Source: Deltaproteobacteria bacterium RIFCSPHIGHO2_02_FULL_44_16 (GTDB lineage Bacteria > UBA10199 > 2-02-FULL-44-16). From it: a stretch of DNA of 64,000 bases. The notes below the pieces were generated by a model. The model was not told the origin of the DNA. It ran no database searches and was given only the letters and a program-made list of their open reading frames with translations. A program made the position numbers and the translations under genes. Each line of letters starts with the position of its first letter. The first letter of the stretch is position 1. The stretch lies in assembly GCA_001798185.1 (NCBI GenBank), contig MGRM01000009.1:85745-149744 (forward strand), in the 5' to 3' direction. Below are positions 22,854 through 36,088 of the stretch, piece after piece.

Positions 22854-24254
22854 ATGACAGAACAAACATTTGATCTTATCGTTATTGGCGCTGGCCCTGC
22901 TGGCTATGTCGCTTCCATTCGCGCTGCGCAACTCGGAATAAATGTGGCGTGTGTTGAAAAAGAATATTTGGGTGGCACCTGTTTAAATGTTGGTTGTATT
23001 CCCAGCAAAGCACTTCTTGAGTCGAGTGAACTCTACTTCCAAGCCAAACACGGCATGAAAGACCATGGCATCAATGTCGGCGATCTCACCATCGATCTGC
23101 AAAAATTTATGGATCGCAAAAACCAGATCGTCAGCAAATTCACCTCCAACATCGGTATGCTCTTCAAAAAAAAGAAAGTAACGAGCATCAAGGGAAGAGC
23201 CAAGTTTACGAGCACCACAACACTTGAAGTGACGAGTTCTGAAGGAACGAAAACAGTTTCGGCGAAGAATATCCTCATCGCAACGGGAAGTGCCCCTGTC
23301 GCTATTCCTAACGTTCCCTTTGATGGAAAAAGAATTATCGATTCCACGGGAGCACTTGCGCTGACGGAAATTCCAAACGAATTAATTGTTATTGGTGGCG
23401 GTTACATTGGACTCGAAATGGGATCTGTTTACATGCGTCTTGGAAGCAAAGTGACCGTAATCGAAGCACTCGATCGACTTGTTCCTGCGATGGATAATGA
23501 CATCAGCAGCGGTTTACAAAAAGTTCTCACGAAACAAGGAATGGAATTTAAACTCTCCACCAAAGTACAGAAAGCGTCGGTTATCGGCAATCGTGTTGAG
23601 GTGACGACACTCGATCCGCAGGGGAATAGTACCGCCATTACCGCTGATTACGTTCTTGTCGCTGTTGGCCGTCGTCCGTATACTGACGGCCTCAACCTCA
23701 ATGCTGCAAATATCACAACAGATGAAAAGGGACGCGTCAGCGTCAACGAAAATTGGCAGACATCAACACCGAATATTTATGCGGTCGGCGATGTGATTGC
23801 AGGTCCCATGCTCGCGCACAAAGCTTCAGAAGAGGGGACTGCGTGTGTTGAGCGTATTGCAAACCATAACGCTTTTGTAAATTACGACACCATTCCGGGT
23901 GTTATTTATACCTGGCCAGAAGCAGCATCTGTCGGCATCACCGAAGAACAGGCGAAACAACAAAACATCAATTACAAAGTTTCAAAATTTCCGTTTATGG
24001 CCAATGGCCGCGCGATTTCGATGAACGAAAAGGACGGCTTTGTAAAATTGATTGCGAGCAAAGATGACGATCGCATCTTAGGCGCGCACATTTTAGGTCC
24101 GCGCGCTTCTGACATGATCGCCGAAATCGTCCTCGGTATGGAGTTTTCAACAACCGCCGCCGACATTGCTCTCACCATCCACGCCCATCCCACTCTTTCC
24201 GAAGCGGTTAAAGAAGCTGCCCTCGGCCTCGGCACCGGCATGATTCATTTGTAA
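22854..24254 (+). CDS. lpdA: Dihydrolipoyl dehydrogenase (E3)
   Basis: FAD-binding 'IGAGPAGY', redox-active 'GGTCLNVGCIPSK', dimerisation domain; 466 aa. Confidence 0.9.
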   Translation: MTEQTFDLIVIGAGPAGYVASIRAAQLGINVACVEKEYLGGTCLNVGCIPSKALLESSELYFQAKHGMKDHGINVGDLTIDLQKFMDRKNQIVSKFTSNIGMLFKKKKVTSIKGRAKFTSTTTLEVTSSEGTKTVSAKNILIATGSAPVAIPNVPFDGKRIIDSTGALALTEIPNELIVIGGGYIGLEMGSVYMRLGSKVTVIEALDRLVPAMDNDISSGLQKVLTKQGMEFKLSTKVQKASVIGNRVEVTTLDPQGNSTAITADYVLVAVGRRPYTDGLNLNAANITTDEKGRVSVNENWQTSTPNIYAVGDVIAGPMLAHKASEEGTACVERIANHNAFVNYDTIPGVIYTWPEAASVGITEEQAKQQNINYKVSKFPFMANGRAISMNEKDGFVKLIASKDDDRILGAHILGPRASDMIAEIVLGMEFSTTAADIALTIHAHPTLSEAVKEAALGLGTGMIHL

Positions 24255-24357
24255 GCCTAAACACCCTTCTTTTCGAACAATTTGCCTGCTAAAATAATAG
24301 TGGTAATAATAGATGTAATATGTGACATTTTTACTGAAGTCTGTGGAGGAAAGGCTC

Positions 24358-25269
24358 ATGACAAAATGGTATACATTAGCTCTGATCAATCCCTACTATC
24401 AAGATAACCATAATCTTTTCCAATCAGACATTTCTTTTGATGATGTGCTTATAACAAAAAAACCAACGTGGATCGATCGTGAGGATATCAAAAACAAGTT
24501 TGGTTTAAACCAAAGACGTATCATTGAAAACGCGGAGCTTTGTTTTATGACAGAATATAAAGCAAAATCTCTTGGAGAGCCCGATCCTTTGTGGAAAGGA
24601 AAAAAGCAGCGATCAAAACAAGATTTGCATGTTGAAAAGATCATGTTCTGTAACCAGGCACTGTGGCTATCTCAACCGACCTCTTTGAACTTTCAGGTTC
24701 TTCTCCACATTGAAAAAAGAAATGGAAAACATACCGGAAGAGAATTCTCAACTTTTCCAGCTGCTCTTCCTCATAGCGAAGATAGTGAAAGTCTGATTCA
24801 TCAAAAAAATATTCAGGAAGCTCAAACTCTTTTCAGTAAGATTTGCTCTTTACACCGTAAGGGTTCCACATGGATTGCTTTGCATAATCTTTGGTCCGCA
24901 CTTTCAGCTCCTCAAGGTCAATGGCTCATGAGATATTTGTTGCTGTGGATCGCTCTTGAAGCACTTTTTGGATCTGATATCGAGATTACACATCGACTTT
25001 CCGAAAGAATTTCCTTTTTCATTGCCGATGATCGTTTTCAAGCGAAGGATTTGTATGAAAGATCTAAGTATTGTTATCGCTGGCGCTCTAAAATTGTTCA
25101 CGGTAACGGAATGGATAAGCTTACACCAAATGATTCAGAGAAAATCATGTATGACTCTGAAGATTTGGTCAGAACTGCTTTGAAGAAAATTCTTTTGAAT
25201 GATGACCTGATAAATACGTTTAGCGGAAATGGACGAGAAAAATGTCTCGACGAACTGATTTTTGCTTAA
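24358..25269 (+). CDS. Hypothetical protein with a HEPN-like R-x4-H-G motif (candidate Abi/RNase effector); AT-rich gene
   Basis: 'YRWRSKIVHGNG' matches the Rx4-6H HEPN consensus in a predicted helical C-terminal region. GGAGGA RBS 8 nt upstream of ATG 24358. Confidence 0.3.
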   Translation: MTKWYTLALINPYYQDNHNLFQSDISFDDVLITKKPTWIDREDIKNKFGLNQRRIIENAELCFMTEYKAKSLGEPDPLWKGKKQRSKQDLHVEKIMFCNQALWLSQPTSLNFQVLLHIEKRNGKHTGREFSTFPAALPHSEDSESLIHQKNIQEAQTLFSKICSLHRKGSTWIALHNLWSALSAPQGQWLMRYLLLWIALEALFGSDIEITHRLSERISFFIADDRFQAKDLYERSKYCYRWRSKIVHGNGMDKLTPNDSEKIMYDSEDLVRTALKKILLNDDLINTFSGNGREKCLDELIFA

Positions 25270-25280
25270 AAATATTAACT

Positions 25281-26318
25281 ATGAAAACTCTCCAACAATT
25301 CGAAAATGAACTCAGAGAAGTACCGGCATCTGCCGCATGGTATATTGGCGACCTTGGAGAAGCACGCGGTAAGCAAGAACTCTTCACACGGCAATCTCAA
25401 CAGAGACTCAAGGTCCTACGTCAGCATGCGTTGATTGAAAGTGCGGTCTCGTCCAATCGGATCGAAGGAGTAACGGTTGATCAAGATCGTGTAAAAGCCG
25501 TGATTCTAGGCCGCTCAGCTCTGCACGATAGAGATGAAGAGGAGATACGGGGATATCGCAATGCACTTAAGTGGATTCACGAAAAGAAGCCAATGATTAC
25601 GGAAAAAACGATCAAAGAACTTCATCATCTCGCTCGGGGAAAAATTGGAGACGCTGGGCAATACAAAACAAAGGACAGTGATATTATCGAACGCCACACA
25701 GATGGTACATATACTGTTCGCTTCAAAACCGCTTCTGCAAAAGAGACATCCAAAAATATGAAGGAGCTTGTTTCGTTGTGGCAAGATCATCTCAAAAATA
25801 AAGCTATTCATCCACTTGTCATTTTGGCGGGATTTAATCTCGATTTTCTTTGCGTACATCCCTTGCGCGATGGCAATGGTCGTGTGTCGCGATTGCTGCT
25901 TCTGCTTCAGCTTTATCATCTGGGTTATGAAGTTGGACGGTACATTAGTCTTGAACGACTGATCGAAGAAAACAAAGAACGTTACTACGAAACCTTGAAG
26001 CTCAGCTCACAGGGTTGGCATGAGGGAAAGCATGATCCGTGGCACTACATCAACTTTTTACTATTCATTCTCAAAGAAGCCTACAAGGAATTTGAAAAAA
26101 GAGCCGGACAAATCAAAGAACCTAAAGGAGCCAAAACAGAATTGATTGAAGCGGCAATTCGATCACTGGGAAATGGATTCACGGTTTCGGATCTAGAAAA
26201 ATCCTGCCCTACTGTCAGTCGTGACATGATTCGCCGTGTGCTCCACAATTTGAAGAAAGCAAAAAAGGTTGAATGCCTTGCACGGGGCCCAGGGGCCACC
26301 TGGAAGCAAAAAGGGTAA
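25281..26318 (+). CDS. Fic-family protein (class II, auto-inhibited AMPylase type) with a C-terminal wHTH-like region
   Basis: Fic motif 'HPLRDGNGRVSRLL' (HPFx[DE]GNGR) and N-terminal inhibitory 'SSNRIEG' ([ST]xxxE[GN]). Confidence 0.8.
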   Translation: MKTLQQFENELREVPASAAWYIGDLGEARGKQELFTRQSQQRLKVLRQHALIESAVSSNRIEGVTVDQDRVKAVILGRSALHDRDEEEIRGYRNALKWIHEKKPMITEKTIKELHHLARGKIGDAGQYKTKDSDIIERHTDGTYTVRFKTASAKETSKNMKELVSLWQDHLKNKAIHPLVILAGFNLDFLCVHPLRDGNGRVSRLLLLLQLYHLGYEVGRYISLERLIEENKERYYETLKLSSQGWHEGKHDPWHYINFLLFILKEAYKEFEKRAGQIKEPKGAKTELIEAAIRSLGNGFTVSDLEKSCPTVSRDMIRRVLHNLKKAKKVECLARGPGATWKQKG

Positions 26319-26411
26319 TACACATTAATAAGTGTAATAATAAGTGTAATGTATATAGGAATTTGTAGCGTTTTGTTTACGTTGTCTAAACCTCTCACTA
26401 CAGAATCATGA

Positions 26412-26440
26412 TTGAATTTTCGCCTGTAAAATTCTAGTAT
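26412..26440 (+). promoter_or_regulatory. Candidate sigma70-type promoter for the MTase operon (TTGAAT-17-TAGTAT)
   Basis: ttgaattttcgcctgtaaaattctagtat in an AT-rich spacer carrying 'ataagtgtaat' direct repeats, ~40 bp upstream of the MTase ATG. Confidence 0.3.
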
Positions 26441-26479
26441 TATGGCTCTCAAAATTTTGATTCGTGTAGACCTAAATCT

Positions 26480-28465
26480 ATGACTAAAGAAATTGAAAAA
26501 AACCAAACTTTGCCAACGCAAGAAAAGTTTTTTTCTACCGAGAAACTACGTCGGTCAGCGCGAGCGGGGACAAATCTACCTGACCCCACGATGGCACCCT
26601 ATGGGTATGATGCCAAACAGCACTACGGCCATCTCTTTCCCAAGTTGGAATTGCCGCGATTGTTTCCGCCGGCGTCGCATCATCCCGATGACCACGTTAG
26701 CTTTGGCTCGCCAAGTATGGAACCCCATCAGCTTTATCTGGGGGACAACCTCTATGTTCTGCGCCAGTTGCCCACTGAATCAATCGACCTGATTTACATC
26801 GACCCGCCCTTCTTTTCCAATCGGACCTACACCCAAATCTGGGGTGACGACAATGAAGTGCGTTCTTTCACCGATATTTTTCAGGATGGGATGTTTTCTT
26901 ATCTCGCTTGGCTGAATGCCCGATTGTGGGAAATGAAGCGGGTACTCAAGTCTACCGGTTCCATTTACGTTCATTGCGATTGGCATGCAGCTCATTACAT
27001 CAAGTGTGAACTCGATAAAATTTTCGGCTATGACAATCTTCGGAACGAGATTATCTGGTGTTACCAAAATGGCGGCAAAGGAAAGGAAAATTTTGCCCGC
27101 AAGCATGATATAATTTTTTGGTACTCAAAAACGCAACAATGGATTTTTAACGAAGCCGACGTTCATATACCCTATGAATTAATTTCGCCTAATTCTGTAA
27201 CGCCATTTAATCTGAAAGACGGACAAGGTAGACGCTATCGGGAGAGAATCTCAAATGGGAAGAAGTATGTCTACTATGAAGATAATGGGAAAATTCCCAA
27301 CGATTGGTGGTTAGATGTACAGCCGTTGACTGGGCGTCATGGGTGGGATGAGAGATTAGGGTATCCTACACAAAAACCGGAATCTTTACTTGAAAGAATC
27401 GTTAAGGCGTCTTCAACTTCCAACGGTATAGTCGCTGATTTTTTCATGGGTGGTGGCACAGCGGGATCTGTCGCTCTGAAATTGGATCGCCGTTTTATCG
27501 GCTGTGACATTTCTCGCGTTGCTGTCAGCGTTACCGCTAGCCGTTTAATTGATATCGCTGAAAATATTTCAGGCATAACAGTAACAAACAAAGCCCAGCC
27601 GACTCTACCAATGAAACAGGCAGACGTTGCCGATATTCGCGTGGGCTATGTGGGGAGCTACCCTCAAGATAAATTTCGCGGTATCTCCCATGAGGAATTT
27701 TCAAAATTCATCCGCACTGTATACCAGGCCATGCCCTTTACGGGTCAGGCTCAATGGATTCATGGCTTGGCCAACAACAAAATTATCCTTTCCATTGGCC
27801 CGGGCGACCCCAATGAACGGGTGACGCTTACACAAGTGGATGGCGCCGTCAAAGACACGGTCAAACAGTATTCTCGACAATTCGCCGAGGGAGAAGACAA
27901 AATTCTTCAGATTATCGGGTGGTCTTTTGATCCTCAGTGTGAAGGTTGGAAGCGCAAGGCGGCAGAAACCCTCAACAGCAAGGGAGTCAAGTTACAAATC
28001 GATCTGATTTCTTTGGGGAGCGAGAGTTTCCGTCAGAAAATTTTCCGCAACGTTGGTGAAAGCAATCTTGATCTCAAATTCAATCGTCTTAATCAACTCC
28101 TCTCATTCACCGGCGCGCCCTATGCCGGAAAAATCACTGTCACCAGTAGGAACAAGTTGACCGTCTCTTTTGCTTTGGAAGGGGCAAGGGCTATCGGTGC
28201 GGGCGCCAAGCTGATCAACTGTCAGTGGGATTTTTCCTATGACAACAACCGCTTTGCCAGTCGGGAACATGCTTTGAACCGGGACGGAAAGAATGGAGAT
28301 TTTATCGCTATCCTGACAACGGATCACACGTTTCCAAAGTCAGGAACGTACAGCATTGCGGCGAGGGTACAGGACAATCTCGACGGACAAGCCACAGTTG
28401 CCGCCCGAATCGAAGTGAGTGAAACCGATTGCAGGATTATTGAAGAGAAGATCGTGAATGTATGA
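26480..28465 (+). CDS. DNA methyltransferase (N6-adenine/N4-cytosine, beta-class, type III Mod-like / PF01555) with a ~300 aa C-terminal extension of unknown function
   Basis: Motif IV 'IYIDPPFFSN' precedes motif I 'DFFMGGGTAGSV' by ~220 aa (beta class), with 'SIYVHCDW…NEIIWCY' in between. 661 aa total. Confidence 0.8.
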   Translation: MTKEIEKNQTLPTQEKFFSTEKLRRSARAGTNLPDPTMAPYGYDAKQHYGHLFPKLELPRLFPPASHHPDDHVSFGSPSMEPHQLYLGDNLYVLRQLPTESIDLIYIDPPFFSNRTYTQIWGDDNEVRSFTDIFQDGMFSYLAWLNARLWEMKRVLKSTGSIYVHCDWHAAHYIKCELDKIFGYDNLRNEIIWCYQNGGKGKENFARKHDIIFWYSKTQQWIFNEADVHIPYELISPNSVTPFNLKDGQGRRYRERISNGKKYVYYEDNGKIPNDWWLDVQPLTGRHGWDERLGYPTQKPESLLERIVKASSTSNGIVADFFMGGGTAGSVALKLDRRFIGCDISRVAVSVTASRLIDIAENISGITVTNKAQPTLPMKQADVADIRVGYVGSYPQDKFRGISHEEFSKFIRTVYQAMPFTGQAQWIHGLANNKIILSIGPGDPNERVTLTQVDGAVKDTVKQYSRQFAEGEDKILQIIGWSFDPQCEGWKRKAAETLNSKGVKLQIDLISLGSESFRQKIFRNVGESNLDLKFNRLNQLLSFTGAPYAGKITVTSRNKLTVSFALEGARAIGAGAKLINCQWDFSYDNNRFASREHALNRDGKNGDFIAILTTDHTFPKSGTYSIAARVQDNLDGQATVAARIEVSETDCRIIEEKIVNV

Positions 28466-29556
28466 TGGTATCAAAAGGAAACAAAATGGAAGGACTCAAA
28501 CCTCAAGATTGGAAGGATTTACTAAGCGGGGTACGCAATCTTATTATTTCAGCCAGGCGAGCCGCCTCGCGAAGCATTGACACTCTTCAGGTGTTCACCA
28601 GCTTTGAGATCGGACGCCGTGTTGTCGAACATGAACAACTCGGAGAAAAGCGAGCCACTTATGGAAAACACGTGCTTACAAGACTTTCAGAGAGCCTAAC
28701 TCGTGAGTTCGGGCGCGGATTTTCAGAGGACAATCTCTCAAATATGCGGCGTTTTTATCTTGAATATCGGAAATGCTTGCCGAAGATTTCCGAGAAGCCT
28801 TCTCGGAAATCCATTTCCGCGCCAGGCCAGTCAATCTTATCGAATGTCAGCTCTGTTTTGAGCTGGTCCCATTACGTTTTTCTGATGACAATTTCAGACA
28901 AGGATGAACGACAATTCTATGAAATCGAATCTGCCCAAAACGGCTGGTCTCTGCCGGAACTCAAACGCCAGTTCAATTCCAGCCTTTATGAACGTCTGGC
29001 CTTAAGCCGGAACAAGAAAAAAGTCCTGGAGTTGGCCAAAAAGGGCCAATTGATAGAAACTTCCTCCGACCTGATCAAGCAACCCCTTGTGCTGGAATTT
29101 CTCGGCTTGGATGAAAAAAACAAATATGCGGAGTCGGATCTGGAATCCGCCATTATCGATAAACTGGAACATTTTCTGCTTGAGTTGGGCAAAGGCTTTC
29201 TTTTCGAAGCCCGGCAAAAACGTTTCACCTTTGACACCGATCACTTCTACGTTGACCTTGTATTTTATAATCGCCTTCTACGCTGCTACGTGCTCATCGA
29301 TCTCAAGATCGGCAAACTCACCCACCAAGATTTGGGACAGATGCAGATGTACGTCAATTATTTCGACCGCTTTGTAAAAAGGGATGGCGAACATCCCACC
29401 ATCGGCATCATTCTTTGCCGAACAAAAGGTAGTGCCTTGGTTGAAATCACGCTTCCTGAAAAAGCCAACATCTATGCGTCAGAATATAAACTCTACCTCC
29501 CATCGAAAAAAGATCTGAAAAGAAAACTTTTGGCATGGGCCGCAGAGGAAGAATAA
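28462..29556 (+). CDS. DUF1016 / YhcG-family PD-(D/E)xK nuclease-like protein (alternative start at 28486)
   Basis: YhcG-like N-terminal region plus a C-terminal '…FYVDLVFYNRLLRCYVLIDLKIGKL…' (D…[I]DLK) PD-(D/E)xK core. ATGA overlap with the MTase. Confidence 0.6.
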   Translation: MMVSKGNKMEGLKPQDWKDLLSGVRNLIISARRAASRSIDTLQVFTSFEIGRRVVEHEQLGEKRATYGKHVLTRLSESLTREFGRGFSEDNLSNMRRFYLEYRKCLPKISEKPSRKSISAPGQSILSNVSSVLSWSHYVFLMTISDKDERQFYEIESAQNGWSLPELKRQFNSSLYERLALSRNKKKVLELAKKGQLIETSSDLIKQPLVLEFLGLDEKNKYAESDLESAIIDKLEHFLLELGKGFLFEARQKRFTFDTDHFYVDLVFYNRLLRCYVLIDLKIGKLTHQDLGQMQMYVNYFDRFVKRDGEHPTIGIILCRTKGSALVEITLPEKANIYASEYKLYLPSKKDLKRKLLAWAAEEE

Positions 29557-29559
29557 TTC

Positions 29560-31695
29560 ATGATTACCGAAGAAGAATTACAATGGCGACTCTGGACGGA
29601 GACGCCCCAGTTCCCAAATCTGAATGACCATCAAAGACTGGTGGCTCAAAGGTTTTTCGAGCGCCTTAGCGGACAGGATTTCTTCAAACCACTTTATCGT
29701 CATCAATGGGAGGCGATTGCACGTGTTATTCATAATGGTGAAGTACGAGGAAAGTGGGAATGCCTTCTCGATATTGTAACCGGAGGCGGTAAGACCGTCA
29801 TCATGGCTGGTTTGATGTCGTACTTTTGGCAGGTTCGTAAGTGCGAAAAATTCCTGATTCTTGTTCCCAACACCATTGTTCGTGAACGGGTCAAAGACGA
29901 CTTTGAGTTTAATAATCCAGCTAATGCATTCAAAGAATTCCCTTTTTTCTTCAACTCTTGCTCCAGGGTACCTGAACGCCTTGTGTGTAAAGTCCTGCGG
30001 GATGGAAGCGACGCCTCCGGCATCCGTGACGCCCATGTGATTGTCGCAAACATCCATCAACTTTACGAAGGCAAGGGTTCTCCTGCCCTTGAAGTGCTCC
30101 TTGCAGACAAGGTTACACCCGAACTCGTGATTTTTAATGATGAGGCGCATAACGCAGCGGCGGGAGAATATCGGGAAGTGTTAAAACTTTTGCGTCGAAA
30201 AACCGTTGCCCGGATTGACCTGACTGCAACCCCTTACCGCCTCGACAAGCAGGACCTCGATACCTATCCGCCGCTGTATGAATACCATGTGCAGGAAGCC
30301 ATGCGCGATGGAGTGGTAAAACAGATCGTAGTGACCAGACCAGACATCCAGAGCGTCAAACTGCAATATGAAGAGTGGGACGAAAACAATCAGGTGATTC
30401 GCACGCTTGATGCCGAAGAAATGCCCTGGGAGCAGATCGAAAGTGAACTCAGGCGAAGCGGTGCCGTTCGTTTCGTCACGGCAGATAACGCCCGCAGACA
30501 ACAGCTTCAAATTGCAAAAAGCTGTTTGGATTATCAGAAAAAATGTGTCCCTCGCGGAGTGGATGATAAGCCACAATGGGAACCGTTGATGCTGACAGTT
30601 GCACTCTCCCAAAAAGATGCTTTTAAAATTTATGAAACCCTTCAGAAAAAACCATTTGGCTATAAACCAGAAGAATTATTGCTTGTTCACAGCAAACAAG
30701 AAGAACTGCAGAACAGGAAAGCATTTTTGCTTGGACGTAAAGGTCCAGAGGGTTTGAATAAAGAAGATGAAGAGTTATGGCATGAGACACGAAAAGTACG
30801 GGTCATCATTGCTGTTTCTATGTTGCGTGAAGGTTGGGATGTTAGAAATATTGCCATTATTTGCCTTTTTCGCAAATTCAGTTTTCAGAAAAAGGGGGAT
30901 CGGACTTATACAGTTTATGGCCCACAGATCATTGGTCGAGGCCTAAGACGAATCCGCCAGCCCAACGAACGGGATTTTCTGTTTGTCATCGATCATCCGG
31001 CTTTCAATCATGATTGGCTTTGGGAGATTCTTTCAGCTCACAAGTACGCCAAGCCACTGAATCCAGGCGACGCCGTGGAAGATTCTTGTATTGAAGACAT
31101 CCCTCTGGAAAAGCCGAAAATAGAGGAATCGGAGGAGGCCAATAAGGAAGACAAGAAACCGGAATTGGATGTTGAAGATATACTCAATAGTCTCCCTTCC
31201 ATTGATGGCAAGGGTGTTCATCCCATCGCCAATTGGCAAAAACATTTTCGAGAGTTTCCCCTAGCAAAAAAAATATCATCGGCCCTCCAAAGAATTACCA
31301 ATATAAAAAGTCAAAAGCTGGGGGGCGATACAACTGCGCATGTCTTGCCTGAAGAAGAGATTAATATTGAGGAACTCAATGAAAGTGTGGCCGGTCAATA
31401 CAAAGATAAAAAACGGGAAGACTTGATTCGGGAACTCCAAACAGACCTGCTCAACGAGCCTCATCATGCACTGATGCTTTGTTTCAAGATGGAGACCGCC
31501 GAGGAAACGCTTAAGTTGATGCAAGCGCTGGAATGGATTTTGACCGAACTTTTTGCCATTCAGGGGGTTAGTGGTTTGGGCGAATCTCCGGAGGCCCAAT
31601 TGCGTAAACTGCATTTTTCCTTACCCCAGATTTTGGATGAGTTTCGGAAGCCGGAAATCGTCTTGGGCATTCTTGGTGAGGGGTCTGAAAAATGA
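29560..31695 (+). CDS. SF2 DEAH-box helicase, type III restriction Res-subunit-like, lacking a recognisable C-terminal endonuclease domain
   Basis: Motif I 'DIVTGGGKTVIMAG', motif II 'VIFNDEAHNAAA', 'LTATPYR', motif VI 'QIIGRGLRR'. 711 aa. Begins 4 nt after the DUF1016 stop. Confidence 0.7.
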   Translation: MITEEELQWRLWTETPQFPNLNDHQRLVAQRFFERLSGQDFFKPLYRHQWEAIARVIHNGEVRGKWECLLDIVTGGGKTVIMAGLMSYFWQVRKCEKFLILVPNTIVRERVKDDFEFNNPANAFKEFPFFFNSCSRVPERLVCKVLRDGSDASGIRDAHVIVANIHQLYEGKGSPALEVLLADKVTPELVIFNDEAHNAAAGEYREVLKLLRRKTVARIDLTATPYRLDKQDLDTYPPLYEYHVQEAMRDGVVKQIVVTRPDIQSVKLQYEEWDENNQVIRTLDAEEMPWEQIESELRRSGAVRFVTADNARRQQLQIAKSCLDYQKKCVPRGVDDKPQWEPLMLTVALSQKDAFKIYETLQKKPFGYKPEELLLVHSKQEELQNRKAFLLGRKGPEGLNKEDEELWHETRKVRVIIAVSMLREGWDVRNIAIICLFRKFSFQKKGDRTYTVYGPQIIGRGLRRIRQPNERDFLFVIDHPAFNHDWLWEILSAHKYAKPLNPGDAVEDSCIEDIPLEKPKIEESEEANKEDKKPELDVEDILNSLPSIDGKGVHPIANWQKHFREFPLAKKISSALQRITNIKSQKLGGDTTAHVLPEEEINIEELNESVAGQYKDKKREDLIRELQTDLLNEPHHALMLCFKMETAEETLKLMQALEWILTELFAIQGVSGLGESPEAQLRKLHFSLPQILDEFRKPEIVLGILGEGSEK

Positions 31696-32138
31696 TTCAG
31701 TCGAAGAGAGGTATTCTTAAAGGACTCAAGAAAACTCCAAAAGGTGAATCTACTTATGACAGTCTTTTGGAGCGAGATTACATGTTTGAATTGGAAAATA
31801 TGGGTGGCGTGGTTTCATGGACCAAGGACCACGGGATCCGAATTCCCTACAAAATCTTCGGGATCATTTCACGCCACTACTTGCCGGACTTCCTTGTCAC
31901 CTATGCGGACGGGTCAAAGGAGATTCATGAAACCAAAGGTGCTGGCTTTCTCGCCTGGGTTTCCACGCACGCCAAACGGCATGCCGGTGATGCCTGGTGC
32001 CGCCAGCGCGGGATGGTTTACCGGTTTATTGAAAACTCCAAAGGGGCGCTGTTTGCGAAGAATAATAGCTTGTCTCAACTTGAGGGAAGTTCCTCCTTCA
32101 AGCAGAAAAAACAAGTCGGGTCATTTGAAGATTTGTGA
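31692..32138 (+). CDS. Small PD-(D/E)xK-type nuclease-like protein (148 aa), translationally coupled to the helicase
   Basis: 'YLPDFLVTYADGSKEIHETKG' is a D…ExK core. ATGA overlap with the helicase stop. Confidence 0.4.
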   Translation: MIQSKRGILKGLKKTPKGESTYDSLLERDYMFELENMGGVVSWTKDHGIRIPYKIFGIISRHYLPDFLVTYADGSKEIHETKGAGFLAWVSTHAKRHAGDAWCRQRGMVYRFIENSKGALFAKNNSLSQLEGSSSFKQKKQVGSFEDL

Positions 32139-32276
32139 ATGTGACTAGAAATGCGGGCATGGAAATTATTTGAACAATTATTTTACTCCACCTAACGCGT
32201 CTTTCGGGGGGAGTCGTAATAGAAACCGCGCTCCGCCCCAACTCTTTATATTCACCTTCTTTACACCATTGTTAAA

Positions 32277-32711
32277 TTGTTTAAAATTATTATTGCAATA
32301 TCTGTAAGAATGGCTTACTCGTCACAAATGGCCACCAAAGGTGAAAAGAAAAGTGAGTTTCTGAGACACAAGAAAGAGATCGAAGAGACTTACAACCGTA
32401 AACTTGAAGCCCTGTATGAGCTTTATCCTGAGTTCAAAAATACCACATCTTCAATCAATGGCGGCAGTGTTAGCACAAGCTCTTATGGCAGCCTTAAAAA
32501 GGTTTTACATCAAGCCATAGATAGGCGCGAGGGTGAGTTTACTTCGCGTGATCTAAAAAAATGGATCTCCGAGATTGATGCATCTGTGGGGGCGGCGATG
32601 ACACCTGCATCAGTTTCAAATGCGTTGGCGCGACTGAAGAAGGAGCAAAAAATAGAGCAAATTAAAAAGGGAGCAGGATCATCACCATCGATTTTTAAAA
32701 AGAAAAATTAA
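32277..32711 (+). CDS. Hypothetical protein (start uncertain)
   Basis: 144 aa ORF upstream of the HNH gene. Lys/Glu-rich; no recognisable motif. Confidence 0.3.
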   Translation: MFKIIIAISVRMAYSSQMATKGEKKSEFLRHKKEIEETYNRKLEALYELYPEFKNTTSSINGGSVSTSSYGSLKKVLHQAIDRREGEFTSRDLKKWISEIDASVGAAMTPASVSNALARLKKEQKIEQIKKGAGSSPSIFKKKN

Positions 32712-32862
32712 AGGCCAACCGCGCTAACGATTGGCCCTTAAATAGGGGACAGGAAAACCCGTCCACTTGTTCAATGCAAGTACACTTGTAGCGGTTCCCC
32801 TCCATTAAATCAAGAGCCCTTTCGTTTTCCTGTGGGTTCAATTTAAATAGGGAGGTTCTGAA

Positions 32863-33123
32863 ATGAACTTAACTCAAGAACAGCTTAAACAAATTTGGTT
32901 TAAAGCTAAAAACGCAGGTGCAGAAAACGACCGGAATGGCTTTCGTAAAGACAAATACGGAGCTTGGATAAAATGGTCTGACTACGGCAACAGAAACAGT
33001 CAATATGGATGGGAAGTTGACCACATTATTGCCACCGCAAATGGTGGGTCTGACACTATGAGCAATCTTTGCCCACTGCATTGGAAAAACAACGCATCCA
33101 AAAGCGGCAGCAGATTCTTATAG
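32863..33123 (+). CDS. Small HNH endonuclease
   Basis: 'YGWEVDHIIATANGGSDTMSNLCPLHWKNNASK' H-N-H core. GGGAGG RBS 6 nt upstream. Confidence 0.65.
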   Translation: MNLTQEQLKQIWFKAKNAGAENDRNGFRKDKYGAWIKWSDYGNRNSQYGWEVDHIIATANGGSDTMSNLCPLHWKNNASKSGSRFL

Positions 33124-33237
33124 CTTGAATGTTAATGGCCTTCAGAATAAAACGACGGTAGCTTGCAATGCCGTCGTTTTTATTTTGCAAGCAAACTGCT
33201 TGGGCGCCAGATATCAAGGATATTCCCTAGAGTGAGC

Positions 33238-33336
33238 ATGATGAAACACTACATCACCGCCACTGACCTCTATAATTTCAAAAAATGCGCTTATTGGCCG
33301 TACATGGATGGCAATACGTTGATAAAAGCACTTTAA
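33238..33336 (+). pseudogene. Orphan duplicated 5' fragment of the TM0106-type nuclease gene (encodes MMKHYITATDLYNFKKCAYWPYMDGNTLIKAL*)
   Basis: Its first ~23 codons are ~85% identical at the DNA level to 34580-34650, the N-terminus of the downstream nuclease ORF. It terminates after 32 codons. Confidence 0.4.
33244..33315 (+). repeat. Direct repeat DR-L (~70 bp) flanking the DUF4143 ATPase gene
   Basis: aaacactacatcaccgccactgacctctataatttcaaaaaatgcgcttattggccgtacatggatggcaat, matching 34580-34652. Confidence 0.55.
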
Positions 33337-33426
33337 AATCAATTGGTTATAAATAAATAAGCTCTGCGAAATATATGATGTTTTCAGCAACACCATTGCG
33401 TATTTTTTAACTTCTGTTAGGCTCTC

Positions 33427-34581
33427 ATGATGGTGGATTACACACGTATTCTTGACCTTCAAACTCCTCTCAAACGGAAAAGCCTTTTTCTTTTTGGGCC
33501 TCGCCAGACGGGGAAAACCTTTTATCTCAAGAAAACTTTTCCCAATATCCCTTTTTATAATTTGCTTGAGTCGAAAACATTTCTTCGGCTGAGTCAGCGC
33601 CCTCATTTACTCCGAGAAGAATTGATGGCAACTGCATCCGCGAATCCGCTGATTATTATAGATGAAATACAAAAACTTCCTCTTTTGCTTGATGAAGTTC
33701 ATTCATTGATTGAGGAAAAGAAAATGAAGTTTATTTTAACGGGGAGCAGCGCGCGGAAGTTAAAAAGAGGTGGAGCCAATCTTTTGGGAGGTCGGGCAAC
33801 AACGCTTCACCTCTATCCATTAGTTTCCGCTGAAATTCCCAATTTTGATTTGATCCGAGCTTTAAATTGGGGAACACTTCCTTCTCTTTACCCCTCTGAC
33901 GACCCGGAAAACGATCTTCATGATTATGTCGGAAATTATCTCAAAGAAGAAATCCAGGCGGAGGGGTTGGCGCGAAACATCGGAAATTTCTCTCGTTTTC
34001 TCCAAACAGCATCACTCTGCAACGCGGAACAAACTCATTTTACAAATATTGGAAACGATGCCCAAATATCGCCTCGCACTGTAGCGGAATATTTCTCCAT
34101 CTTGGAAGACACACTCATCGGATACATTTTAGAGCCCTATACAAAGACGAAAAAACGAAAGGCAGTTTCTACCGCGAAATTCTATTTTTTTGATTGCGGC
34201 GTTTGCAACGTTTTGGCCGGACGAAGAAACATCAGTCCAAAAACAGAACTGTTCGGAAAGTCGTTTGAGCAATTTATTTTTACAGAATTGAAAGCCTATC
34301 TTTCCTATAAGCGGGATTCCCGGCCGCTTACTTTTTGGAAATCCCAAATATCAGATTACGAAGTTGATTTTTTGATCGGAGATGAAATTGCCATTGAAGT
34401 AAAAGGTTCTGAATTGATTACAGAACGCCATTTAACGGGTATTAAGGCTCTTAAAGAAGAGTTGAAATTGAAAAAGAACATTATTGTTTCCATGGATGAA
34501 AAACCTCGAAAATTGGACGGCATTGATATTTTCCCCGTTTCTCATTTCCTTGAAATGTTATGGAGCGGAGAAATTGTCTAA
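33427..34581 (+). CDS. AAA+ ATPase, AAA_14 / DUF4143 family
   Basis: Walker A 'LFGPRQTGKTFYL', Walker B 'LIIIDEIQK', and a DUF4143-like C-terminal region. Confidence 0.7.
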   Translation: MMVDYTRILDLQTPLKRKSLFLFGPRQTGKTFYLKKTFPNIPFYNLLESKTFLRLSQRPHLLREELMATASANPLIIIDEIQKLPLLLDEVHSLIEEKKMKFILTGSSARKLKRGGANLLGGRATTLHLYPLVSAEIPNFDLIRALNWGTLPSLYPSDDPENDLHDYVGNYLKEEIQAEGLARNIGNFSRFLQTASLCNAEQTHFTNIGNDAQISPRTVAEYFSILEDTLIGYILEPYTKTKKRKAVSTAKFYFFDCGVCNVLAGRRNISPKTELFGKSFEQFIFTELKAYLSYKRDSRPLTFWKSQISDYEVDFLIGDEIAIEVKGSELITERHLTGIKALKEELKLKKNIIVSMDEKPRKLDGIDIFPVSHFLEMLWSGEIV

Positions 34582-36088
34582 ACACTACATCACCGCCACT
34601 GATCTCTATAATTTCAAGAAGTGCGCCTATCGACCATTTATGGATTTCAATGGGGATCTATCGTTGAAAGTCGACGTGCATCCGCTCGTGAAACTGCTGT
34701 GGGAATCGGGAGTGCAATATGAAGCAAAGGTCATTGAATCGTATCAGCGAGATCATTCCGAAAAATCGTTTCGTGCAATCGATCCTGAGAAGCCGGCATC
34801 CGAAGCTTTGGCCAAGGAAACGCTCAAAGCAATGCAAGATGGGATTGATATCATTTATCAAGGTGTTTTGATTTCAGGAAATAAACTCGGTCGTCCTGAT
34901 CTGCTTCTGAAAACACCGGGATCTTCGTCGCTCGGCGCGCATCATTATTATCCGATGGATATTAAACTCACTCGCATTGATGCGACATGGGATGATGGCA
35001 ATGAAAAGGTTCCCATAGAACAATTCTGGCAAATCTATTTTTATGGTGAACTTTTAGAGCACGTTCAAGGCAAGCGACCAGAGAAAGGTTATATCTATAA
35101 GACCAAGTCGCGCATTCTTCCGATTCCTCTTTATAAAGCTCCCAAGAATTACGAATGGTCAGTGAATCAATTAGAAAATTATCTTCAGGGAAATGCGTTC
35201 GGAGCAGAGCCAACGATCAACAGCAATTGCGGCTTATGCGACTGGAAAGATTCATGTCGAAGTTGGGCCGATGAAAAACAGGATATTTCACTCGTCTATT
35301 ATGTTGGTCAGGCAATGAAACTCGGACTCAATCAACTCGGCATTCGTTCGATCGAAGATCTTGCGGCGCAAGATCCAGACTATTTGACGAGAAAAGTTAT
35401 AGAACTGAAAAACCAAGGATTCTTTTGGAATGCAATGCCCGCCGATCTCCCTGCAAAATCTGTTGTGCGCGCGAAGATTCACCTGAGCAAAAAACCGGTC
35501 ATCCATAACCCCATCACTTTTCCTGATGCTGAAAAAGAGATTCATTACGATATCGAAGATGACCCAACACAGGATTTTGTCTATTTGCACGGCGCCTTGC
35601 TTATCGAGAAAGGGAAAGAGCCAAAGTATTACGCCTTCTTTGCAGAACATCGCGATGAGGAACGCACCATCACCGAACACCTGTTTGATTTTTTCAATCA
35701 GCACCCGGATGCGACTGTGTATCACTACAGTGATTACGAAAAGACAACGCTTAAGCGACTCATCAGTAAGCATCAACTCGATTCGACATCGTATGAACGA
35801 TTGTTCGGTAAAAATGGAACAGCAATCGATCTTTATAAAATTGTCACCGAGAATACTGACTGGCCGCTGACAAGCTATGGCGTCAAGGCGATCTGCAAGT
35901 TTTTGGGATTTCAGTGGGATGCCAGTGATGCTGGTGGCGCCGCATCGATTGTCTGGATGAATGAATATTTAAGCGGACATACAAGCATGAAAGAGAAAAT
36001 ACTCCGATATAATGAAGACGATTGTCGGGCGACCTCTTTTCTCAAAAACGAACTCATCAAAATGCAAAATCACACGAACGATGTGTAG
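34484..36088 (+). CDS. RecB-family nuclease, TM0106-like (Cas4/RecB-like N-terminal domain with Cys cluster, RNase-H-like C-terminal domain). Start ambiguous.
   Basis: Conserved N-terminal 'HYITATDLYNFKKCAYRPFMD'; Cys cluster 'CGLCDWKDSC'; C-terminal 'HYDIEDDP…VYLHG' RNase H-like. No ATG immediately precedes the conserved N-terminus, so the only in-frame ATG (34484) overlaps the ATPase gene. Confidence 0.5.
   Translation: MFPWMKNLENWTALIFSPFLISLKCYGAEKLSKHYITATDLYNFKKCAYRPFMDFNGDLSLKVDVHPLVKLLWESGVQYEAKVIESYQRDHSEKSFRAIDPEKPASEALAKETLKAMQDGIDIIYQGVLISGNKLGRPDLLLKTPGSSSLGAHHYYPMDIKLTRIDATWDDGNEKVPIEQFWQIYFYGELLEHVQGKRPEKGYIYKTKSRILPIPLYKAPKNYEWSVNQLENYLQGNAFGAEPTINSNCGLCDWKDSCRSWADEKQDISLVYYVGQAMKLGLNQLGIRSIEDLAAQDPDYLTRKVIELKNQGFFWNAMPADLPAKSVVRAKIHLSKKPVIHNPITFPDAEKEIHYDIEDDPTQDFVYLHGALLIEKGKEPKYYAFFAEHRDEERTITEHLFDFFNQHPDATVYHYSDYEKTTLKRLISKHQLDSTSYERLFGKNGTAIDLYKIVTENTDWPLTSYGVKAICKFLGFQWDASDAGGAASIVWMNEYLSGHTSMKEKILRYNEDDCRATSFLKNELIKMQNHTNDV
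34580..34652 (+). repeat. Direct repeat DR-R (~70 bp), coinciding with the conserved N-terminal coding region of the nuclease gene
   Basis: aaacactacatcaccgccactgatctctataatttcaagaagtgcgcctatcgaccatttatggatttcaatgggg. Confidence 0.55.

Follow-up and report, generated by a model that had tools for sequence, protein, structure and literature searches.

Within a 64,000-nucleotide stretch of the genome of Deltaproteobacteria bacterium RIFCSPHIGHO2_02_FULL_44_16 (contig MGRM01000009.1, positions 85,745-149,744; hereafter the window), two neighboring genes on the border of a defense island encode a HEPN protein with an ApeA-type domain on a new compact scaffold (ORF1, for open reading frame 1) and a class II Fic protein. 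The pairing occurs in this genome only and the distributions of the two genes are independent. The explanation that we favor, with some reserve, is that each is a toxin or abortive-infection effector in its own right, made up of a single gene, and that the two came to share a transcription unit through insertion of ORF1 into the leader of a mobile Fic gene. New here are the compact ApeA-type HEPN scaffold and the repeat-bounded Fic unit with its variable toxin slot. An interpretation made earlier from the letters of this DNA alone, here called the sequence-only reading, had named both protein families correctly and had proposed that they act jointly as a two-gene effector module; the family calls hold, the joint module is not supported. 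The features of the pair are as follows.

24295-24319, + strand: upstream tandem repeat TAATAGTGGTAATAATAGATGTAAT, 38 nt before the ORF1 start
24358-25269, + strand: ORF1, 303 amino acids, protein of two domains, one of them HEPN and remotely similar to ApeA, 37.6% guanine plus cytosine (GC)
24358-24792, + strand: alpha/beta domain at the N-terminus of ORF1 (residues 1 to about 145), with a putative sensing or regulatory role
24793-25266, + strand: ORF1 C-terminal helical domain, residues about 146-303, which holds the HEPN core
24946-24972, + strand: WIALEALFG motif, residues 197-205, with E201 conserved in 150 of 150 relatives
25084-25104, + strand: RSKIVHG, the HEPN R-x4-H motif (R243, H248), where the third core helix (226-247) ends
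25281-26318, + strand: Fic gene, class II Fic of 345 amino acids with a C-terminal winged helix
25452-25469, + strand: Fic inhibitory motif S58-N-R-I-E62-G63, matching (S/T)xxxE(G/N)
25857-25892, + strand: Fic catalytic loop HPLRDGNGRVSR, residues 193-204, intact
26178-26303, + strand: Fic C-terminal winged-helix-like domain (...CPTVSRDMIRRVLHNLKK...), residues 300-341
26326-26350, + strand: downstream tandem repeat TAATAAGTGTAATAATAAGTGTAAT with TAATAAGTGTAAT/AATAAGTGTAAT units, 7 nt past the Fic stop

ORF1 Is a Compact HEPN Protein

ORF1 is a HEPN protein. Its AlphaFold2 model, made with the family alignment, has two domains (predicted local distance difference test score 92, predicted template modeling score 0.90), and the C-terminal one contains a four-helix up-down core (residues 189-204, 211-222, 226-247 and 257-279). 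This is the HEPN fold for which the sequence-only reading had proposed structure prediction as a check, and the R-x4-H motif lies on the third core helix; in ApeA structures the HEPN active-site residues likewise sit on H3 (10.64898/2026.01.26.701840). The RSKIVHG motif that had been pointed out is present at residues 243-249. A bare R-x4-6-H pattern is weak evidence, because ORF1 also contains a second, unconserved match (R85-H91, R-x5-H). R243 and H248 are meaningful because they are conserved in 146/150 and 147/150 relatives, respectively. In the same alignment of 150 relatives W103 is as invariant as E201, and R217 (148), W197 and G205 (147 each) and R293 (145/150) are nearly so. The conserved residues of the N-terminal domain are P36, Y67, an EYEA..LG.PDP motif, Q88, W103 and P107.

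Sequence profiles place the C-terminal domain next to ApeA. With the 150-sequence profile, Ec1ApeA and Ec4ApeA were the only meaningful matches in the PDB. A profile of the C-terminal domain with distant relatives added ranked eight ApeA entries first (E values 7.9e-6 for Ec4, 1.2e-5 for Ec1, 3.9e-5 for Ec2, 9.6e-4 for Ec3 and 0.14 for Thr1), followed by HEPN-containing Csx1-Crn2 proteins. Two alignment blocks stand out. The ORF1 segment WIALEAL pairs with VWIALECIF, LWIAIESL and YWSALESL of ApeA proteins, and Y-x-x-R-S-K-I-V-H pairs with RIYRTRNLIVH of Ec2ApeA, in register with its catalytic R502/H507; mutation of R502 abolishes defense by Ec2ApeA (10.64898/2026.01.26.701840). A member of the ORF1 family on a Bacillus mycoides plasmid bears the NCBI name 'HEPN domain-containing protein' and aligns with the family across both domains (hhalign probability 98.5%, 263 columns). 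Hence an ApeA-type HEPN domain is detectable in ORF1 by sequence comparison, although curated ApeA models do not recognize it. The PADLOC ApeA model matches two of the 150 family members (best E 8e-5), and a Pfam scan of the 150 gave scattered chance hits only, with no HEPN_Apea model touched. The first, full-length profile had no match among the PDB sequences, and only deeper alignments reached ApeA. A Foldseek search of the PDB with the whole ORF1 model gave nothing informative (hits to vinculin tails and to D-Ala ligase, E > 0.1), and a search for ApeA sequences with a fragment of Ec1ApeA returned one partial protein and no plasmid match.

ORF1 shares its HEPN sub-type with ApeA (Ec1-Ec4ApeA structures 9hxn, 9hxd, 9hxj and 9hxm), including the WIALE(A/C/S)L helix and an aligned Y-x-R-(S/N)-x-I-x-H catalytic helix. 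Both occur as stand-alone single genes in accessory or restriction-modification contexts, and in both a non-catalytic region precedes the HEPN domain. Strictly, though, ORF1 does not qualify as an ApeA. It has half the length (303 versus approximately 550-620 amino acids), and it lacks the three-domain organization, being without the ApeA N-terminal and Mid domains and without the insertion of about 100 residues between the HEPN motifs. Within the searches made, its N-terminal alpha/beta domain is unrelated to ApeA. ApeA forms a doughnut-shaped oligomer with a ligand pocket, cleaves tRNA anticodons and protects against phage. That ApeA-type HEPN nucleases sense small molecules made during infection and cut tRNA was shown only recently. 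The ORF1 family combines the same catalytic module with a much smaller and different putative sensor scaffold and could therefore serve as a minimal system for how HEPN defense nucleases switch on.

A word-indexed protein search found 14 relatives of ORF1 and at first hinted at a rare orphan. An exhaustive search with a hidden Markov model (HMM) overturned this: it yielded at least 400 cluster representatives at E <= 1e-30, 2,736 at E <= 1e-10 and 11,848 at E <= 1e-3, where the 400 are clusters at 50% identity with scores of full-length strength and represent a lower bound. Rarity judged from the word-indexed search alone would thus have been misleading. The closest relative (L077, 2-2861; 50% identity) lies in a tight operon of YhcG, the ORF1 homolog and an N6_N4 methyltransferase, with a 2-nt gap and a 4-nt overlap, and the second closest (L076, 159-3020; 43% identity) is followed by a Dam methyltransferase and DpnII. 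The trio of YhcG, HEPN protein and N6_N4 methyltransferase is found both in L077 and in the window. Neighbors of other relatives include HATPase_c_3, DUF4145, AAA_21, transposases, integrases, NYN and DUF3631. The HEPN module of about 110 residues (WIALEALF ... RSxxVHG) also occurs alone, as a 143-amino-acid protein (L018, 7869-8300). In metagenome-assembled genomes of Chloroflexota and Actinomycetota it is joined to one of several N-terminal regions, 200-400 amino acids long and unrelated (L013-L017; e.g., L015, 6972-8492).

The Second Gene Encodes a Class II Fic Protein

The product of the second gene matches Fic of Pfam (PF02661; E 2e-13) and SoFic of PADLOC (E 8e-33), and its closest solved structure is PDB 8uqu ('Fido domain-containing protein'), which it matches over the full length (E 1.7e-86). 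The sequence-only reading had noticed a Fic catalytic motif and an SxxxEG inhibitory helix, and both are there. The loop differs from the consensus HxFx[D/E]GNGRxxR in that Leu replaces Phe. The inhibitory motif is N-terminal to the Fic core and 130 residues before the catalytic loop, which assigns the protein to class II, and a weak Pfam match to Fic_N covers residues 44-97. From its sequence the protein would be inhibited by its own helix. The winged helix aligns with the C-terminal domain of 8uqu and is conserved across the Fic family. Fic fold, intact loop, N-terminal inhibitory helix and C-terminal winged helix are thus common to the window protein and to SoFic-type proteins such as 8uqu. 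The relation to SoFic is at the family level only and the window protein is not an orthologue, as it scores 45.6 bits with the NCBIfam equivalog NF046030 versus a cut-off of 550. No small AS1-like antitoxin open reading frame is evident downstream of it, and its family differs from SoFic in the tandem GTAAT repeat that is conserved around its stop codon (see below).

The Fic family is very large, with at least 7,995 relatives at E <= 1e-30 among the 8,000 candidates scored. Relatives in Nitrospirota, Brocadia, Latescibacteria and Burkholderiales are still 65-70% identical, which points to horizontal spread. Their neighbors include Cas1, Cas4, Cas6, Cas7, HsdM/S/R, Eco57I, Mrr, Bro-N, RhuM, HNH and assorted others. 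In five loci (L028, L038, L047, L039 and L060) the Fic gene is inserted inside a CRISPR-Cas operon, directly after cas7, a cas6-like gene or cas4 and before cas4 or cas1, and it keeps its 3' tandem repeat there. The Fic gene is a mobile resident of defense loci and not a housekeeping gene.

The Gene Pair Is Adjacent but Not Conserved

The two genes are on the same strand and 11 bp apart, as the sequence-only reading had described. Its length of 304 for ORF1 is right in codons, stop included, but the protein has 303 amino acids. ORF1 was also said to be strongly AT-rich; its GC content is 37.6%, compared with 44.8% in Fic and 44.3% across the window, and so it is distinctly AT-rich but not dramatically so. 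ORF1 starts with an ATG preceded by GGAGGAAAGG, a good Shine-Dalgarno sequence, and upstream lie the housekeeping genes sucA-sucB-lpdA, with the end of lpdA at 24254. The 11-bp gap presupposes that Fic starts at the ATG at 25281; an in-frame ATG at 25242 would overlap ORF1. The start at 25281 agrees with all close homologues (345 amino acids), one of which is identical (database entry P0015, listed under 'Deltaproteobacteria bacterium RIFCSPLOWO2_02_FULL_44_10'). A scan for promoters and terminators found neither a terminator-like nor a promoter-like site in the gap, and its counts were no higher than the shuffled expectation. An Rfam scan of 24100-26600 matched no RNA family.

Recurrent adjacency in unrelated genomes, as would mark a conserved two-gene HEPN-Fic operon, was not found. 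From the side of ORF1, none of 13 other genomic contexts of full-length relatives contains a Fic gene. A tblastn search with Fic had no match in L001-L018, and Fic is missing from the Pfam lists of called genes for L076-L078 and the place of P0136. From the side of Fic, we covered six loci of the closest relatives (71-88% identity) and 51 metagenomic loci; 34 Fic loci had upstream sequence long enough for an ORF1-sized gene. An ORF1-family gene was adjacent to Fic in none of about 50 other loci, and the HMM run against 155 neighboring open reading frames matched only the window's own. The closest Fic relatives have other upstream genes or none. Both genes thus occur independently, and the proposal of a joint module does not survive the comparison. 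The sequence-only reading had itself foreseen that a conserved housekeeping Fic, present independently of the first gene, would speak against a joint function; the independence is real, but the Fic in question belongs to mobile defense loci. For annotation this means that HEPN-Fic adjacency in a defense island should not be taken for a new two-component system unless conservation supports it.

A Tandem Repeat Brackets the Pair

The ORF1-Fic pair is flanked on either side by a 25-nt tandem repeat, and the Fic stop codon falls within a further GGGTAAT unit. The 13-nt repeat unit, of which 0.75 copies are expected per 64 kb, is found upstream and twice after the Fic stop. The downstream copy is not restricted to the window but characterizes the Fic family. 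A GTAAT-N7-GTAAT tandem with a 12-nt period is present between -12 and +35 nt of the Fic stop in 34/45 distinct loci, where chance would give 0.003 per locus (binomial P ~1e-77), and a further unit often overlaps the last Fic codons and the stop. Units are more alike within a locus than between clades; examples are AATAAGTGTAAT, AAAGAGGGTAAT, AAATTAGGTAAT and ACGCGAYAAT. They evolve in concert per locus and differ by clade. The type of unit tracks a segment of the winged helix (..SRDMIRR.., ..GIDMIRR.., ..SRPMIRV..), a correlation that is confounded by phylogeny. In the Fic/SoFic literature searched, a tandem GTAAT repeat at the stop codon is not mentioned.

The upstream copy of the repeat is present in six loci only, namely the window, L019-L022 and L042, the last with a clade-specific form. 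Between this copy and the Fic start is a slot with variable content:

Window: ORF1
L019: gene with HNH and homing-endonuclease repeat
L020 and L021: empty (140 and 44 nt to Fic)
L022: degenerate HNH remnant
L042: RhuM gene, with the whole three-unit element of about 43 nt duplicated

ORF1, with its lower GC content, is inserted between the conserved upstream element of the Fic unit and the Fic start, and because of this position the two genes are probably co-transcribed. The upstream repeat overlaps the sole promoter-like site of the lpdA-ORF1 spacer (24282-24310), which is itself not above chance.

It is possible, although we rather doubt it, that the Fic gene is the core of an undescribed cassette-like unit that is bounded by GTAAT repeats and captures toxin or nuclease genes in its slot. 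The Fic winged helix could use the repeats as operators; a captured toxin would then come under Fic control, and co-regulation would make ORF1 and Fic partners nevertheless. Alternatively, the repeats could serve for recombination and carry the unit from one locus to another, be it CRISPR-Cas, restriction-modification or other. The conserved repeat at the end of a very abundant Fic family and the variable toxin slot that it can enclose could, taken together, show how genes of this kind are controlled or spread among defense loci. An origin of the upstream repeat as a relic of a truncated second Fic was rejected, as no Fic-like coding remnant lies upstream in L042; a second Fic fragment is also absent from the whole 64-kb window. 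Judged informally, the repeats have no resemblance to Xer/dif sites, integron attC sites or Tn7 ends, and these origins were set aside.

Proposed Function and Alternative Explanations

For RNase activity, trigger and AMPylation we infer the following from better-studied systems. ORF1 would dimerize via its HEPN domain and form a composite active site from R243 and H248, in analogy to ApeA, PrrC and other HEPN defense nucleases. It may stay silent until its N-terminal domain or the interdomain surface senses an infection cue, and would then cleave cellular RNA, most likely tRNA anticodon loops, and cause growth arrest. ApeA is a single-gene abortive-infection HEPN nuclease that cuts tRNA anticodons and is activated through a ligand pocket (10.64898/2026.01.26.701840). 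Cleavage of tRNA anticodon loops has been shown for ApeA, PrrC and DARNA. The Fic AMP-transferase would be held off by its own N-terminal S-x3-E-G helix and, once relieved, would AMPylate proteins like SoFic, an AMPylating abortive-infection toxin (PMC12249575). Co-expression would then be an outcome of the insertion event and not of a mutual need.

Several results weigh against two independent effectors of this kind. ORF1 itself has no Pfam, NCBIfam or PADLOC match, ApeA models included (E <= 0.1). Its family is sizeable and uncharacterized, and a nuclease role is assigned to it by analogy. Structure searches with the N-terminal domain gave no informative relative, and its role as a sensor is therefore conjecture. 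Some relatives of ORF1 adjoin ordinary metabolic genes without a recognizable defense island, and none was found in phage records or IMG/VR, for which reason a phage origin of ORF1 was also rejected. Finally, an unconserved pairing does not exclude local co-operation, and the repeat-bounded unit with its probable common promoter would allow for it.

Such co-operation would go furthest if the pair were a true two-gene module, in which Fic AMPylates and silences the HEPN protein as MNT does HepT, or in which one trigger fires both. The short co-directional arrangement with no terminator-like or promoter-like site in the gap and the position of both genes within one repeat-bracketed unit fit this idea, as does the slot that in relatives carries other nuclease or toxin genes (HNH, RhuM), and AMPylation-regulated HepT toxins (8xdj, 7ae2) are among the structural matches of ORF1. 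However, the pairing is unique to this genome, the GC contents of the two genes differ, and the Fic, being of class II, has an inhibitor built in and does not depend on a partner. MNT moreover has a nucleotidyltransferase fold and not a Fic fold, and ORF1 reads RSKIVHGN and so lacks the Tyr of the HepT motif RX4HXY that MNT AMPylates. With the acceptor Tyr absent and the pairing unconserved, we rejected HepT-MNT-like control of ORF1 by AMPylation, and we consider a two-gene module in general improbable. Equally improbable is that ORF1 is not a nuclease and that its HEPN-like domain, instead of being catalytic, binds nucleotides or ligands or acts as a scaffold, as happens with some HEPN members: R243, H248, E201, R217 and R293 are near-invariant in 150 diverse relatives, which indicates a conserved active site, and the R-x4-H of ORF1 aligns with experimentally essential residues of ApeA.

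Another explanation ties ORF1 to the adjacent restriction-modification operon as a back-up RNase similar to PrrC/RloC, which would fire when phage disable the methyltransferase-YhcG-Res-nuclease system, with Fic as an unrelated insertion. Neighborhoods in which HEPN proteins, restriction-modification systems and DOC/Fic proteins are combined on mobile elements are already a theme in Anantharaman et al. (2013; PMC3710099), who proposed multi-level defense acting on DNA, RNA and protein, and ApeA-type HEPN genes embedded in restriction-modification operons have been described (PMC3710099). The window likewise juxtaposes a HEPN RNase candidate, a Fic toxin candidate and restriction-modification genes in a mobile island, as in PrrC/RloC-type neighborhoods. 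The YhcG and N6_N4 methyltransferase set that accompanies the closest relative of ORF1 begins 1.2 kb downstream of ORF1 in the window, and the second-closest relative precedes a Dam methyltransferase and DpnII. Still, most other contexts of the ORF1 family have no restriction-modification genes. In the window ORF1 is separated from the methyltransferase by Fic, its repeat and a 161-nt spacer; a physical or regulatory link would be conjectural. Unlike PrrC/RloC, ORF1 lacks an ABC ATPase and is a member of another HEPN family, and the linkage is unconserved. It therefore seems unlikely that ORF1 serves as such a back-up, and we retain two separate effectors in one transcription unit as the better explanation.

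The Defense Island Downstream

Downstream of the Fic repeat the following genes are tightly packed, with 4-bp overlaps or 3 bp apart:

26480-28465: N6_N4 methyltransferase, 661 amino acids, with a long C-terminal extension
28462-29556: YhcG/DUF1016 (PDC-S02), a PD-(D/E)XK protein embedded in the operon
29560-31695: ResIII helicase, 711 amino acids, with no nuclease domain detected by Pfam
31692-32138: TnsA-like nuclease, a separate endonuclease of 148 amino acids

Together they resemble a type III restriction-modification operon with an unusual layout. The TnsA-like gene is followed by an AAA_14-DUF4143 ATPase (PDC-S01) and then by an RNase_H_2-family protein. Several of these downstream genes bear PADLOC labels for defense or candidate defense, and the sequence-only reading was therefore correct in placing the pair at the edge of a defense island.

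The surroundings of Fic were compared between the window (25281-36088) and a related genome (L019, 7001-11709). In the latter, a Fic gene 88% identical to that of the window is followed directly by a UvrD helicase and then by an RNase_H_2-family gene, which is 72% identical to its counterpart in the window (34568-36070). The place of UvrD is taken in the window by the restriction-modification and AAA_14 block of about 8 kb. The island thus appears to have been built by successive insertions adjoining Fic, which supports the view that the whole region is modular and that each neighbor of Fic is a separate insertion.

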